From a virus (Duplodnaviria; Caudoviricetes): a stretch of DNA of 64,000 nucleotides. Below the pieces are notes generated by a model that did not search any database, was not told the origin of the DNA, and saw only the letters and a program-made list of their open reading frames with translations. Of the stretch, positions 49,239-63,408 are shown piece after piece (the first letter of the stretch is position 1; the number at the start of each line of letters is the position of its first letter). The stretch covers positions 256,001 to 320,000 of IMG/VR virus record IMGVR_UViG_3300037067_018912; one strand, 5' to 3'. A program made the translations under genes and the position numbers.

Positions 49239-49329
49239 GACTGTTTGTTTTTGTGTGATTGATTTTATATAAGAGTTTACGGTAAAAACAGTAAAAGGTT
49301 ACGTAAATGATTATCAATTTTTGCCTATG

Positions 49330-49443
49330 TGACGAATGGCTTAAAACCTTTGACGAACGGCCAGGTCCTGGAGACCAATAGCCAGGTCTTGGCGTTTATC
49401 CCAGATCTGGTGCTGTTCGTCACCGGAAATCGTACATTGGTCA
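49330..49443. promoter_or_regulatory. TGACGAA-type direct repeats with 21-bp period, in both orientations
   Basis: + strand 49330, 49351, (49372); - strand 49443, 49422. Confidence 0.55.
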
Positions 49444-49564
49444 AAGTTACAAAATTTAATGCTTATTAGTCGAACTTTATTTGTATTTTTACGTAACATA
49501 TTACGGAAACAGTTTAAAACAAATTATTAAAGGTCTAAATTGAATAACTTTAAACGTGTGCAAA

Positions 49565-50248
49565 ATGAAAACAGCAAACAGTAAAACAGCAAAAAACAGA
49601 TACAACAAATCACGTGTTATGCGTATGGCATGGGTTGTATACCGCAAAAATGGTGGTGACTTATTATGGTCAGACAGCCTGAAACAGGCGTGGAATATGG
49701 AAAAGAACGGTTTGGCCGTTAATACCATTGAAAACCTTTATACAAGGTATTATAAAATGATTTTCAACCATATCATTTTAAGGGTGCGCAAATATGAGAT
49801 AGCACAGGAATTGACACAGGATGTCTTAATCAAAGCCAATGAACACCTTGCAAATTATGACGTTATGCGCTCCAAAGTATCAACATGGCTTTTGACTATT
49901 GCCAATAACAAAATAATTGATTTTTACCGGAGCAATGCCAATGCAAGTAATAAGGTCAATATTGGCGATTTTGTGAACGAAAAAGGTAATGAAACCCTGC
50001 CCATCATTGGCGGTTCACAGGCTAATGAAATGACTGAAAACGAAGAGTTAAAGGAAAAGATAATGTCCTGTATTGACAAATTAAAACCTAATTACAAACA
50101 GGTTGCTATATTGCGCTTTGTCGAAGACAAGGAATACAGCGAAATAGCCGAGGCAATGTCCATAACCATTGACAATGTGAAAGTTATGGTAAACCGTGTC
50201 CGTGCAATGTTACAAGAGCAATTGCAGGACGAATATTCCAACCTCTAA
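49565..50248 (+). CDS. ECF-type RNA polymerase sigma-70 factor with N-terminal extension
   Basis: Region 2: LYTRY...AQELTQDVLIKA...STWLLTIANNKIIDFYR; region 4: IDKLKPNYKQVAILRF...YSEIAEAMSITIDNVKVMVNRVR. Confidence 0.92.
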   Translation: MKTANSKTAKNRYNKSRVMRMAWVVYRKNGGDLLWSDSLKQAWNMEKNGLAVNTIENLYTRYYKMIFNHIILRVRKYEIAQELTQDVLIKANEHLANYDVMRSKVSTWLLTIANNKIIDFYRSNANASNKVNIGDFVNEKGNETLPIIGGSQANEMTENEELKEKIMSCIDKLKPNYKQVAILRFVEDKEYSEIAEAMSITIDNVKVMVNRVRAMLQEQLQDEYSNL

Positions 50249-50331
50249 CCGAGGTTGGCCATTTGTCCGGTCAATGTCCAAAGTGATTTATACAATGTCC
50301 TTAATGTCCAAACAATTAACACAATACAATC

Positions 50332-50652
50332 ATGAACGAAATAAATAAAATACCGAGTGAATATATTGAACCGTACCTTGTTAAATTTTTAGGTTCAATG
50401 ATAGATTTCCTGGCCTGTGCCTATCTTACAGAAGAAGACAAACAAAATATTGGTAGGGGTATAGGTTGGACAGTTGCAGAGGTTAAACTATGGATTAAAG
50501 GGGTTGAGGTCTTTGTTTCTCAATCCTGTGGTATTCATGCAAGCATAGCAATGAGCAATCAATTGGAAAAGTTTATCTGTATGCCTGACAAAGAATTAAA
50601 GGAAATGTGTGCTAAAGTTGCCCGTGAGGCAGTAAGAGAATGGGATGAATAG
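50332..50652 (+). CDS. hypothetical protein
   Basis: 106-aa ORF downstream of the sigma gene. Confidence 0.72.
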   Translation: MNEINKIPSEYIEPYLVKFLGSMIDFLACAYLTEEDKQNIGRGIGWTVAEVKLWIKGVEVFVSQSCGIHASIAMSNQLEKFICMPDKELKEMCAKVAREAVREWDE

Positions 50653-50738
50653 CACAATGTGCAAATATAACCGAGCAATAACGTAACCTTATTGTTCAAT
50701 TTACGTAAAATCTTACATACAATCAATACACAAACATT

Positions 50739-51080
50739 ATGGCAATGAAAATTATAACCAAAGAGATTGAGGCAATGTTCGCCAAACAGGGTGACACCTC
50801 AGAGAAAGAGATGAAAGAGATAAAGATCATCATGAAGTTATTCAACCCCGCAGGCGCAGGCACGTGGTATCTGTATGAGAAACTGGACGATGATGTTTAT
50901 ATGTGTTTTGCAAACCTCGGCGATAGCGAAATGGCTGAAATGGGTACGGTTTCAATGTCCGAGTTAATGTCGCTGCGTCTGCCCTTTGGCCTGCACATAG
51001 AACGTGACAAAGGTTTCAAACCAATGTCCATAACCTTAGAGGAAGTTTACAACAAGATAAAGGCAGGCGGTCATATTTAA
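50739..51080 (+). CDS. DUF2958-like protein
   Basis: KLFNPAGAGTWYLYE...EMGTVSMSEL...GLHIERD. Confidence 0.78.
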   Translation: MAMKIITKEIEAMFAKQGDTSEKEMKEIKIIMKLFNPAGAGTWYLYEKLDDDVYMCFANLGDSEMAEMGTVSMSELMSLRLPFGLHIERDKGFKPMSITLEEVYNKIKAGGHI

Positions 51081-51248
51081 CCTGTAACAAAACAACCCTT
51101 TGCACGTATCATTTAAAGCATAAGTTTAAACGTTTTCCAATTCAATGACTGAGAGGCCGGACAGCAATGTCCGGCTTTTTTATTGTTCATAACTGTAACA
51201 TTATTGTCCGGCTTACGTAAAATCTTACATAACCAATACACAAAAGCA

Positions 51249-61284: not shown

Positions 61285-61524
61285 ATGAAAACGAAAGTCT
61301 TATATTTTTGCAGTAATACTCAAAAGAATTACTATCACATTTGGACTGTGTTAAAAGAAAAGTTTGACAATCTGACAGCCATAACTGTAGATGAAGTTGA
61401 AGAGTATTTGAACAGCATCAATGCAAAGTTTTACATCAAAGAACATCCATACCAATTGGAACTTTATAACCCTGAGAACGAATATGTTTTCTGTATTAAT
61501 AAGCCAACAGAATGTCCATTGTAA
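61285..61524 (+). CDS. hypothetical protein
   Basis: 79-aa ORF; its stop lies in the next -35 element. Confidence 0.7.
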   Translation: MKTKVLYFCSNTQKNYYHIWTVLKEKFDNLTAITVDEVEEYLNSINAKFYIKEHPYQLELYNPENEYVFCINKPTECPL

Positions 61525-61575
61525 CATTTCAAGGTTTTATACGTAACATCTTACATAACCAATGTACAAACACAA

Positions 61576-62121
61576 ATGAATAAGCCAAAATTAGAACTAA
61601 AGAAAATCAAGACTTTCCGTGGTATGGAGGGTTATGGTCTGAACGCCGACCTGTATATCAACGGTGTGAAATGTTATTTTGTTCTCGACGAGGGTAATGG
61701 TGGTGAGATTGATTTCCAACCTGAACTCTATCAGAACCCCAAGGCCGAGCAAGTTAAAGCCAACATAAAACTGTTGGACGAATACATCGCCACCCTGCCG
61801 GAACAGGAACTCTTCACCGATGATAAAGGTAAGAAGCACACATACAAACCCGATTTGTCATTTATCCTTGACGAACTGATTAACGAGCAGGAAAAGGCCA
61901 AAGTCGCCAAGAAGATGGAGAAACTGTTCGAGACTGCTATTTGTTTCGGTGTGCCGAATAGTGGCAGGTACAGATATATTACTTGGAAAAACAAAAAACC
62001 GCTTTCCGCAATGCCGAAGATTATTATCCAAGGCGAAGTGAACCGGATAAAGGCGAAAGAATGCAAAGACGGCGTTGTCATTCTCAACACCAACCTGCAA
62101 TCACTTGGTATTATACTGTAA
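61576..62121 (+). CDS. hypothetical phage protein
   Basis: ADLYING...DEGNGG; ATG after cassette leader. Confidence 0.78.
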   Translation: MNKPKLELKKIKTFRGMEGYGLNADLYINGVKCYFVLDEGNGGEIDFQPELYQNPKAEQVKANIKLLDEYIATLPEQELFTDDKGKKHTYKPDLSFILDELINEQEKAKVAKKMEKLFETAICFGVPNSGRYRYITWKNKKPLSAMPKIIIQGEVNRIKAKECKDGVVILNTNLQSLGIIL

Positions 62122-62134
62122 AATAAACAGACAA

Positions 62135-62308
62135 ATGGACACGAATAAAAAGTTTATTATTGTAGATAATCTTGATGATCATCAGGGTTATAATGGTGAA
62201 GAAGTTATTGTAGTAACAGAACATGGCGAAAACTATTTCACCGTTCAATCAACCAAAAGTAATTTGCAATGGATGTGTGGTGAGGAAGAATTACAAGAAA
62301 TTAAATAA
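62135..62308 (+). CDS. small hypothetical protein
   Basis: 57-aa ORF. Confidence 0.65.
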   Translation: MDTNKKFIIVDNLDDHQGYNGEEVIVVTEHGENYFTVQSTKSNLQWMCGEEELQEIK

Positions 62309-62398
62309 AGCCACACGTAAGATATCAGAGAGGGGGTTTGTTTTGTAACATTCCCCCTTTTTTTACGTAATATCTTACACAATCAATATACAAACACA

Positions 62399-62818
62399 AT
62401 GGGAAGAATAAAACAAATGAAAGCGGATATCGAAGTTATGCTCTTTGATATCTATCATCACATCGGTATTGATAAGCCGACCAATCATGAAGAGATTGTC
62501 GATTTCGTCTTCAATGATGTTGCAGAAGCAGCAGGAATTGAATCAGGCGATTTTCATTCCGGTGATGTGGCTATAGGTTTCCGCAGATGGATGGAATCGA
62601 AACCCACAGAACAGAACATTTACCTCCTCTTCGGCGAACAGGCCGTCAGAGCATATGAAGATGGTGGAGTTGAAGCCGCTGTGGAAAGCGTTAAGAATGG
62701 TGAGGGTTCGGTGTACCATTGGAATTCAAACCGTGACAATCCTATGTCACTTCTTGGTGAGGCTGACGGTTGGGAAGATTATACCGAGATTACCAAAGAA
62801 GAATATGATCAATTTTAA
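62399..62818 (+). CDS. two-domain hypothetical protein
   Basis: C-terminal half paralogous to 51249-51509. Confidence 0.78.
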   Translation: MGRIKQMKADIEVMLFDIYHHIGIDKPTNHEEIVDFVFNDVAEAAGIESGDFHSGDVAIGFRRWMESKPTEQNIYLLFGEQAVRAYEDGGVEAAVESVKNGEGSVYHWNSNRDNPMSLLGEADGWEDYTEITKEEYDQF

Positions 62819-62892
62819 AGAAACCACGCCGGGGGTGTAACAAACCCCCGGTTATTACGTAATATCTTACACAACAATAAAGCATAACCACA

Positions 62893-63408
62893 ATGAAAGA
62901 TAATATTTGGTCAGAAATCAGAAGCAACTTTGAAGACGAAGGCGTTATTCATATTGATGCTTGGATCAGCGGAGACGACAACGAAGAAGGTAAAGTTATT
63001 GCCACCATCGACAAGGCAACAAGTGTTGTTTCTTACCGGGATGACCGGGCGAAAACTGATGCATATGCACAGGAAATAATAGCAGAAGTCTTGGCTGACC
63101 TCACCAAAAGTACTATTCCTGATGAGGATGCAAACTTCACACAGTTCATGGTGGAAATGAATGGCAAATTGAAACCCCCTACACCGAAGAACGCCACCGA
63201 TAAAATAGAAGATTTGACATACGATATTGACGTCCGTGGTGACTACGCCCTGTTCATTGAAAAGAAACATTTCATCGAAGAATGGAAACTCGACAATGAG
63301 GCGAGAGAAGCCGCAGGTGGTATAACGTTCTTCCGGGTGATCCGGGACGGCGTGCAGCAATCCGGCCACGGATGGATTGAGAACGGCGAGATTGTTCAAT
63401 GGGGTTAA
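62893..63408 (+). CDS. hypothetical protein
   Basis: ATG after cassette leader. Confidence 0.78.
   Translation: MKDNIWSEIRSNFEDEGVIHIDAWISGDDNEEGKVIATIDKATSVVSYRDDRAKTDAYAQEIIAEVLADLTKSTIPDEDANFTQFMVEMNGKLKPPTPKNATDKIEDLTYDIDVRGDYALFIEKKHFIEEWKLDNEAREAAGGITFFRVIRDGVQQSGHGWIENGEIVQWG

Follow-up and report, generated by a model that had tools for sequence, protein, structure and literature searches.

An ECF-type sigma factor gene of a giant phage heads an array of SigW-like bipartite promoters that it probably reads

The window analyzed here is a stretch of 64,000 nucleotides (nt), bases 256001 to 320000 of a virus record that comprises 357,275 bp and has direct terminal repeats (IMG/VR record IMGVR_UViG_3300037067_018912; here G0). 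Among the samples listed as containing G0, there were four of DNA, two of them possible sources (labeled landfill and groundwater metagenome) and two with partial content, and none of RNA. Coordinates are those of the window unless G0 is named. At 49565 to 50248 (+), the window carries a gene for an extracytoplasmic function (ECF)-type sigma factor of 227 amino acids (aa), the window sigma. The 20 kb directly 3′ of this gene contain an array of 24 co-oriented copies of a bipartite promoter type, TGTAAC or more generally YGTAAC, followed by 16 nt and CGTA (class 1). A degenerate copy, TCGAAC-N16-CGTA, was read in the sequence at 49470 to 49495 (+), 69 nt ahead of the ATG of the sigma gene. A divergent copy, CGTAAC-N16-CGTA, at 49278 to 49303 (-) belongs to a 190-aa gene on the other strand (48666 to 49238, -). 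The data discussed below suggest that the window sigma probably reads the class-1 promoters of G0.

The product of 49565 to 50248 is a genuine ECF-type (group 4) sigma factor. Pfam detected Sigma70_r2 (1.6e-13; residues 61 to 128) and Sigma70_r4_2 (2e-11; residues 167 to 219) and gave no region 3 match at E ≤ 0.01; in line with ECF membership, the protein comprises sigma-2 and sigma-4 domains only, with neither region 3 nor region 1.1. The NCBIfam model TIGR02937 matched with 1.4e-26 and 93 bits (cutoff, 42.9). An AlphaFold model of moderate confidence (predicted local distance difference test [pLDDT], 70) revealed two helical domains with a disordered linker between them (residues 127 to 159) and, ahead of these, a two-helix N-terminal extension. 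The best-ranked Foldseek matches of this model were ECF sigma factors (Mycobacterium tuberculosis SigE, SigL, and SigH, AlgU, sigma-E, SigW, and BldN), and its sigma-4 domain superposed on region 4 of sigma-E bound to -35 DNA with a TM score of 0.81 and a root mean square deviation of 1.6 Å. Among solved structures, the best sequence match was SigW (5WUQ; 1e-10). All NCBIfam subfamily and equivalog models, including those for SigW (TIGR02948, 57.5 versus 243.1 bits; NF007223, 64.3 versus 209), scored below their cutoffs. The nearest bacterial relatives were ECF sigma factors of Bacteroidota with 24 to 32% identity.

The class-1 motif was far more frequent than expected. In dinucleotide-preserving shuffles of the window (n = 100), 0.14 matches to YGTAAC-N16-CGTA were expected; the window has 28 exact matches, a number reached in none of the shuffles. 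In the whole of G0, GTAAC-N16-CGTA was the top overrepresented 5+4 dyad (45 sites versus 1.3 expected), and each of the other spacings between 12 and 21 nt was represented by 1 to 4 sites. In this genome, which is 90% coding (465 genes by a simple gene call), 43 of the 45 sites were intergenic and in gene orientation, and the next start codon on the site's own strand was mostly 21 to 47 nt downstream. One-mismatch variants were rare, with seven intergenic cases, four of them CGTAAC and one TGAAAC. Matches to Escherichia coli-type sigma-70 promoters between 49000 and 64000 were at background (44 versus 42.6). Thus, AAC and CGT at a 16-nt spacing, an ECF-type promoter class, dominates G0. For SigW of Bacillus subtilis, the -35 element is TGAAAC, and CGTA at -10 confers selectivity (PMC5758882). 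The results support the view that class-1 sites behave as promoters of ECF type, with transcription predicted to start 5 to 9 nt after CGTA, at the A of CTTACATAA.

A sequence-only reading of this DNA had described an ECF sigma gene at these coordinates, preceded by TCGAAC-N16-CGTA and followed by motif copies with invariant 16-nt spacing that resemble the SigW promoter signature. All of these points were borne out by the above data; other details need revision. For 49278 to 62895, it listed 19 sites besides the sigma gene's own; the sites are real, but the exact matches number 20 (19 on the plus strand and 1 on the minus strand). The end it gave for the array, 62895, is too early, since the array runs past the window to window-equivalent position 69223 (G0 325223). 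Its eight copies in the left part have the right coordinates, but the one at 26140 is the one-mismatch variant TGAAAC-N16-CGTA, and an exact site at 47446 had been missed. Finally, what it called a 20-promoter cassette regulon is better described as about 45 promoters genome-wide, including those of tRNA arrays, RtcB, and a DNA methyltransferase.

An extended cassette with about 60 nt of identity among the copies surrounds 20 class-1 sites, all among the 24 of the array; 19 of these 20 lie in G0 305270 to 321440. The cassette consists of a hairpin (in some copies), TGTAAC, 15 nt usually ending in a T-run, A, CGTA, AyATCTTACAyAAyCAAyACACAAaCACA, and the ATG; its leader is A/C-rich and lacks a Shine-Dalgarno sequence. 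In the window, the array (all sites on the plus strand) begins with a promoter and cassette leader at 50682 to 50707, before a DUF2958 gene (50739 to 51080). It continues with a core-only site without cassette leader (51083 to 51108) and with cassette promoters at 51194 to 51219, 51527 to 51552 (CGTAAC variant), 52120 to 52145, and 53371 to 53396. The match at 54014 to 54039 is also core-only, lies within an open reading frame (ORF; 53772 to 54254), and is doubtful as a promoter. Further cassette promoters are located at 54358 to 54383, 55036 to 55061, 55819 to 55844, 56352 to 56377, 57272 to 57297, and 58342 to 58367. A class-1 promoter at 59311 to 59336 is followed by an RNA-like element and no ORF, and the cassette promoter at 59450 to 59475 precedes a GP88-family gene (59511 to 60311). 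The last cassette promoters in the window are at 60351 to 60376, before a DNA methyltransferase gene (60407 to 61273), and at 61520 to 61545, 62344 to 62369, and 62836 to 62861. Array units are short, with one to three mostly ORFan genes each. Almost all products lack a Pfam or PHROG match, the exceptions being the three just named and a weak regulator-like match at 63445 to 63930. The early or middle timing and the host-takeover role that the sequence-only reading had proposed for the sigma's program of small genes are putative. In one unit (52174 to 52681), a frame of 78 aa starts at the cassette ATG (52174) and is overlapped by a 143- to 162-aa ORF in another frame; this could represent two genes, a frameshift, or a miscall.

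Many promoters of the array are joined to terminators. In 8 of the 20 cassettes, the -35 hexamer is located in or next to the loop of a G+C-rich hairpin (-10.7 to -21.3 kcal/mol), and the T-run of the hairpin is the promoter spacer. At 52120, the hexamer is in the loop of hairpin 52115 to 52135 (-10.7 kcal/mol), and at 54358, the loop of the terminator hairpin (54348 to 54373; -15.2) is TGTAAC itself and the T-run is the spacer. Hairpins also enclose the -35 element at 55036 (55024 to 55054; -17.1), 57272 (57255 to 57292; -21.3), and 58342 (58335 to 58356), and the remaining three belong to the promoters at 60351 (60336 to 60368; -17.9), 62344 (62327 to 62362; -19.7), and 62836 (62828 to 62852; -19.2). 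At 51194, 56352, and 59311, TGTAAC is directly preceded by a terminator and its T-run; the terminator spans 51151 to 51180 in the first case and 59281 to 59306 in the third. Terminator-like sites between 49000 and 64000 numbered 25, versus 12.9 expected. By folding energies, a strong hairpin covered the hexamer at 8 of 45 class-1 sites and at 20 of 275 other YGTAAC sites (P = 0.04), and all eight class-1 cases fall among the 20 array cassettes; two stricter hairpin detectors revealed no enrichment. Since GUAA-type loops are common in hairpins of G0, part of the overlap between hairpin and hexamer may be coincidence.

Two further features recur in the array. Eight of its promoters carry the perfect palindrome TTACGTAA over the -10 element and TTACrTAA again 12 nt later, so that a TTACrTAA-N4-TTACrTAA tandem is formed. 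Of the 23 genomic copies of TTACGTAA, 20 lie within G0 305 to 328 kb (window 51213 to 62870 plus G0 328430 and 328455), two of them without a -35 element. The palindrome may serve as the operator site of an additional control layer. Additionally, the class-1 sites at 59311 and G0 321232 are each followed, without an ORF, by one of two paralogous RNA-like elements of about 75 nt (59347 to 59418 and G0 321268 to 321339); the next class-1 promoter is located about 100 to 170 nt beyond each of them. The pair shows a compensatory helix change (GCGGG/CCCGC versus GTGGG/CCCAC) and a conserved loop region, CGGTGCAGTAATCCG. An Rfam search with the element found no family.

Outside the array, class-1 sites precede genes for an RtcB ligase, a von Willebrand factor A (VWA) protein, a nucleotidyltransferase (DUF2204), and a protein of 763 aa that weakly matches an ATPase, as well as tRNA arrays. 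In the window, the dispersed sites are all on the plus strand. The first (3157 to 3182) directly follows a tRNA-Leu gene, and a TAtcTTTG box of host type comes after its CGTA. The sites at 8541 to 8566 and 16364 to 16389 overlap promoters of a host type (TTTG/TAnnTTTG) and precede tRNA arrays starting at 8778 and 16663, respectively. The site at 13947 to 13972 lies before a 753-aa VWA-domain gene (14017 to 16278) and has a host-type promoter about 40 nt upstream. Those at 23915 to 23940 and 37059 to 37084 precede genes of 103 and 142 aa, and the one at 37541 to 37566 precedes tRNA-like genes at 37840 and 38356. The variant at 26140 to 26165 corresponds exactly to the SigW consensus. The exact match at 47446 to 47471 is near the 3′ end of a 1286-aa ORF, and its function is doubtful.

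The class-1 system is conserved in related giant phages. An exact-peptide search for the window sigma in IMG/VR gave no hit, and megablast of the array against phage records gave no match and, by this route, no close relative for a comparison of cassette flanks. Homologs were found by alignment: two genomes (G1 and G2) were retrieved with the window sigma, and homologs of a second sigma factor of G0 (sigma-2, see below) were retrieved from 54 IMG/VR loci, from which 12 large records were scanned and two were analyzed whole. G1 (364.7 kb) and G2 (327 kb) are complete giant phages with 26% GC each, versus 40% in G0, and have 45 and 58 GTAAC-N16-CGTA sites, respectively, with an equally strict spacing and no match to the reversed control pattern. 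Between genomes of 25 to 40% GC, only TGTAAC and CGTA(T/A) are conserved. A class-1 promoter at a similar distance was retained by 14 of the 15 G2 orthologs of G0 class-1 genes and by 4 of the 10 G1 orthologs. In total, ten related giant phages use this promoter type, and a window-type sigma homolog together with class-1 promoters was present in all eight complete relatives. The two-helix N-terminal extension (residues 1 to 53, 49565 to 49725; pLDDT, 75 to 84) is found in the sigma of G0, G1, G4, and G6 and in metagenome homologs; it is absent from that of G2, G3, G5, G7, G8, and G14.

Between lineages, the spacer (N16 or N17) and the -35 element (GTAAC or GAAAC) change. Besides G0, G1, and G2, N16 is used by G3 and G5 (41 and 30 sites). 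G4 uses N17 (61 sites versus 1 at N16), and G14 uses mainly N17 (36 versus 7). Both spacers occur in G6 (46/14) and G8 (30/15) and are tolerated in G13. In G7, GAAAC is combined with N17 or N16 (16 and 9 sites), with essentially no GTAAC sites. For five of seven G4 orthologs of class-1 genes, an N17 site was located no more than 400 nt upstream, in four cases at 57 to 77 nt before the start. Since these genes keep their promoter with N17, the spacer change is regulon-wide.

Assigning a sigma factor to the class-1 promoters is complicated by the fact that G0 encodes three of them. In addition to the window sigma, ECF-type sigma factors are encoded at G0 73388 to 73966 (-) (sigma-2) and 13556 to 14257 (-) (sigma-3), so that adjacency alone is not sufficient to assign the regulon. 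G1 lacks a homolog of sigma-3 and still has 45 class-1 sites; sigma-3 is thus not required. The sigma-2 gene lies downstream of and overlaps a primase-like gene (primase as read from the translation). The best solved matches were E. coli sigma-E for sigma-2 (4.7e-6) and Bartonella quintana RpoE for sigma-3 (entry 5UXX; 1e-3), and the strongest ECF and sigma-4 scores of the three were those of the window sigma. The sequence-only reading had named the window sigma as the reader of the sites. Three lines of evidence, namely, the head-of-array position, regulon-wide covariation, and the closest similarity to SigW, led us to favor the same protein.

The first line is synteny. Within 20 kb downstream of the window-type sigma gene, there are 24, 18, 30, 28, and 5 co-oriented sites in G0, G1, G2, G4, and G7, respectively. 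None was found downstream of sigma-2 in the same five genomes, where 0.7 to 1.9 would be expected by chance. The share of all sites that lie just downstream of the window-type sigma was 20 to 53% in five whole genomes, and match lists of G3, G6, G8, and G14 revealed the same head-of-array layout. The second line is covariation. The window-type sigma of G4 has a 19-aa insert in the linker between its domains (69 aa versus 50 to 53 aa), and in the G7 protein, the linker comprises 60 aa and the 4.2 helix is rewritten (NRLH). The R..H of this helix is shared with TRIH of B. subtilis SigW, and all TGTAAC phages have other residues there; the pairing with GAAAC is known for SigW and would extend to the G7 sigma.

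The most serious competitor is sigma-2, which would be made early from a host-type promoter and read TGTAAC-N16-CGTA, while the window sigma would be the first gene of the regulon and read, e.g., GTATTTAT. This second phage class (aGTATTTATa) consists of a -10 element only, usually 15 to 18 nt ahead of the ATG. It has about 70 intergenic copies in G0, mainly before large, mostly unannotated genes (e.g., 44269 [G0 300269] and G0 90893, 144675, and 228006), and 133 and 126 copies in G1 and G2, versus 88 and 79 expected from base composition at 26% GC, at the same distance to the ATG. Phage ECF-type sigma factors can use promoters without a -35 element (PMC5333181, PMC4331800), so the window sigma could read GTATTTAT. 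The arrangement would also solve the problem of start-up, since a host-type promoter (TTTG-N-TAnnTTTG; G0 74964 to 74994, -) immediately precedes the primase-like gene located ahead of sigma-2, whereas in G0 to G2, the sole promoter seen before the window-type sigma gene is class-1-like. Moreover, hardly any variation was seen among the ten genomes in the 4.2 helix of sigma-2, LTSSTVSNRVNYIKTKLKK, as would be expected of the reader of an invariant -35 element. However, this helix stays unchanged in G4 and G7, where spacer or -35 element change and the window-type sigma changes with them; sigma-2 is less SigW-like, with a weaker sigma-4 match; and the lack of class-1 sites downstream of sigma-2 described above speaks for the window-type sigma. 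Furthermore, the sigma-2 operon was located downstream of GTATTTAT sites in the three genomes examined (3/3), which fits sigma-2 belonging to, or reading, the GTATTTAT class. We therefore consider class-1 recognition by sigma-2 unlikely, albeit the alternative with the most in its favor.

Several observations weigh against recognition by the window sigma. Its adjacency to the array and its class-1-like upstream promoter fit a member of another sigma factor's regulon equally well, and the strong conservation of the sigma-2 4.2 helix could mean that it is sigma-2 that reads the invariant AAC. Linker length and spacer correlate only partially: the linkers of G14 (N17) and of G6 and G8 (mixed) have 50 to 53 aa, like those of N16 phages. 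Maximum-likelihood trees of both sigma families were unresolved, and with few lineages, the covariation is confounded by phylogeny. No conserved co-encoded anti-sigma factor was found, and for the 106-aa ORF downstream, G1, G2, G4, and G7 offer no relative; many ECF groups likewise lack a classical anti-sigma factor. Finally, the region ahead of the G0 sigma gene shows no host-type promoter, and the upstream gene is divergent, which leaves the first sigma molecules unaccounted for.

The start-up problem is linked to autoregulation. Ahead of the sigma gene, there is TCGAAC-N16-CGTA in G0, TGTAAC-N16-GGTA in G1, and CGTAAC-N16-AGTA in G2, each 1 or 2 mismatches off the consensus, which is consistent with weak positive autoregulation of the window sigma. 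ECF sigma factors commonly autoregulate, as the sequence-only reading had noted, and the near-consensus sites of the three genomes fit putative feedback of this kind; in G4 and G14, host-type promoters (TTG-N19/20-TAnnTTTG) are found directly upstream of the sigma ortholog instead. The latter supports an order in which the host sigma factor is followed by the window-type sigma and then by class 1. Upstream of sigma orthologs, we also observed the motif TTATTTAGAATGA in G1 (about 174150), G4, and G6 (L163) and palindromic TTTAGA...TCTAAA variants in G5 and G8; TTATTTAGAATGA may be a regulator site.

In G0, the host-type class TTTG-N18-21-TAnnTTTG has 17 strict intergenic sites, among them the one before the primase-like gene and those at 8552, 13906, and 16352. 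At tRNA arrays, several of these promoters overlap class-1 sites or lie next to them and form dual-promoter units, which should be readable by both polymerase forms; this suggests two holoenzymes active at different times.

A host ECF sigma factor, or host polymerase with another phage protein, might also read class 1, the array being immediate-early and the phage sigma factors being employed otherwise. Bacteroidota carry many ECF sigma factors, and it is among these that the nearest bacterial relatives of the window sigma are found. With a host factor, the start-up problem of G0 vanishes, and the array resembles an early, hypervariable region of small ORFans with their own strong promoters and terminators. 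However, class 1 is common to phages of 25 to 40% GC, which hence probably have different hosts, and the lineage-wise switches of spacer and -35 element suit a factor carried by the phage. In addition, a window-type sigma is present in every complete genome with class-1 sites, and upstream of the 80 nearest bacterial ECF genes, AAC-N16/17-CGT was not enriched (3 to 5 loci versus 3 in the reverse-strand control). On these grounds, a host-encoded reader seems improbable.

Still poorer is the case for promoters of the Bacteroidota primary sigma factor, with TAtcTTAC or TAtcTTTG near CGTA as the true -7 box and TGTAAC as an upstream element. A perfect TAnnTTTG does overlap or follow CGTA at 3157, 23915, and 37541, and at some sites, TTTG arises from T-runs before TGTAAC. 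Nevertheless, the invariant positions are TGTAAC and CGTA rather than TTTG or TAnnTTTG, and the offset of the TAnnTTTG-like box from CGTA varies (3, 6, or 7 nt by sequence reading), the box being absent in G1, G2, G4, and G7. The separate, genuine host-type promoters of G0 and the background level of E. coli-type sigma-70 matches make this explanation very improbable. Least credible of all is a repeat that is not primarily a promoter, that is, a mobile or recombinogenic cassette or an operator: despite the extended identity of the 20 array copies, the clustered and tandemly repeated TTACGTAA palindrome, and the shuffling thought to be mediated by PeSL-type cassettes (PMC4122927), nothing beyond the bipartite core with its fixed spacing is common to the 25 dispersed sites and all those of other genomes, orientation and start-codon distances are promoter-like, and a function as operator or in shuffling would come on top of promoter activity rather than replace it.

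With the window sigma as the probable reader, the following scheme can be drawn. After infection, the phage would make the ECF-type (group 4) sigma factor from 49565 to 50248, which would bind the host core RNA polymerase and direct it to about 45 sites, the sigma-4 domain reading TGTAAC at -35 and the sigma-2 domain reading CGTA at -10. Its targets would be the 20-kb array, the dispersed genes, and the tRNA arrays with their overlapping host-type promoters. Within the array, the intrinsic terminator of each unit would be fused to the promoter that follows, with the -35 element held in the hairpin loop in 8 of 20 cassettes, and the sigma factor would feed back on its own weak promoter. A more far-reaching idea, which we regard as possible but doubtful, is that the sigma factor and its promoters make up a self-contained module with a recognition rule that was rewritten regulon-wide several times within a single clade of giant phages and is set by the sigma linker and two residues of the 4.2 helix. 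Under it, the rule classes would be N16 (G0, G1, G2, G3, and G5), N17 (G4 and G14), both spacers (G6, G8, and G13), and GAAAC (G7); the two-spacer genomes would be intermediates, and the -35 element in the terminator loop would reflect functional coupling between termination and re-initiation and not compaction alone.

The host is probably of the Bacteroidota type, to judge by the style of promoters and leaders and by the group to which the nearest bacterial ECF sigma factors belong. A Shine-Dalgarno-like tetramer precedes only 5.8% of all G0 genes, and the 20 nt ahead of start codons are 45% A; A-rich leaders without a Shine-Dalgarno sequence are typical of Bacteroidota (PMC7797042). G0 has no match to the RNA polymerase beta family (PF00562), and seven of its largest proteins gave no polymerase-like PHROG, with no specific search made for a very divergent phage polymerase or a gp55-like factor for GTATTTAT.

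Class 1 shares with the promoters of B. subtilis SigW and SigX its bipartite structure, the 16-nt spacing, and CGTA at -10, and GAAAC recurs at 26140 and in the G7 regulon; the sigW promoter itself is autoregulated. In relatives, a T-tract adjoins the -35 element (TGTAACaatttt), similar to tGAAACnTTTt reported for SigW (PMC5758882). Unlike SigW, the sigma factor described here is phage encoded, has no anti-sigma partner that we could find, stays far below the SigW equivalog cutoff, presumably serves a lytic program rather than envelope stress, and has a regulon that is large for the genome size (45 to 61 sites per about 350 kb).

In phages phiEco32 (gp36) and Salmonella 7-11, an ECF-family sigma factor redirects the host core polymerase to phage-specific middle/late promoters after a phase of host holoenzyme (PMC4331800), and these promoters have a single element, TAATGTATA, with no recognizable -35 element (PMC4331800, PMC5333181). 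Class 1, with its invariant -35 element and fixed spacing, does not fit this type, whereas GTATTTAT does. G0 also differs in being a giant phage with two or three sigma factors and three promoter classes. PeSL/PmSL cassettes, in which a stem-loop, promoter, leader, and start lie between small ORFans, are known from hyperplastic regions of T4-like phages (PMC4122927, PMC2839356). The G0 array resembles them in its 20 repeated cassettes with leader, its 8 strong hairpins, and its mostly ORFan genes in a variable region, but PeSL promoters are of the host sigma-70 type with the stem-loop upstream, whereas here they are of the ECF type and the hairpin straddles the -35 element in 8 of 20. Other T4-like traits of G0 are that no polymerase of its own was found and that a -10-only class precedes large, mostly unannotated genes.

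Phage sigma cascades are classical, with SPO1 gp28 followed by gp33/34 and with T4 gp55/gp33 acting at late TATAAATA promoters. Polymerase-less group-2 jumbo phages, including ones that infect Bacteroidetes, encode sigma factors (PMC7824862). G0 agrees with such large-phage cascades in its host-type and phage-specific promoter classes, its several sigma factors, the lack of a polymerase-beta family match, and the -10-only GTATTTAT class. In the literature searched, we did not find a canonical bipartite ECF promoter described for a phage sigma factor. Besides bringing known themes together, the system adds this promoter, present 45 to 61 times per genome, terminators overlapping its -35 element, and regulon-wide rule changes.

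The genome of this uncultured phage offers a nearly complete wiring diagram that can be read from sequence, with three promoter classes, two or three sigma factors, and about 45 targets for one of them, and it extends phage ECF sigma factors from the -35-less phiEco32 type to the canonical bipartite promoter. Its relatives are a natural series of changes in the spacer and in one -35 base alongside one sigma factor, by which sigma-promoter coevolution and the role of the linker in setting the spacer length become testable. Strict sigma-promoter pairs and fused terminator-promoter units are possible orthogonal expression parts for Bacteroidota.

Next to the sigma gene, the divergent 190-aa gene is kept in G1 (61% identity) and G4 (42%). 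Its product has no Pfam or PHROG family match, no recognizable domain, and no hit in the ESM Atlas; a role as sigma partner or regulator is possible. Elsewhere in the window, a tRNA with a CTA anticodon (26907 to 26981), labeled Pyl by ARAGORN, would read TAG, which is the rarest stop codon in the G0 gene call (24 of 465). The window also carries 32 other tRNAs and a tmRNA at 1755 to 2120.

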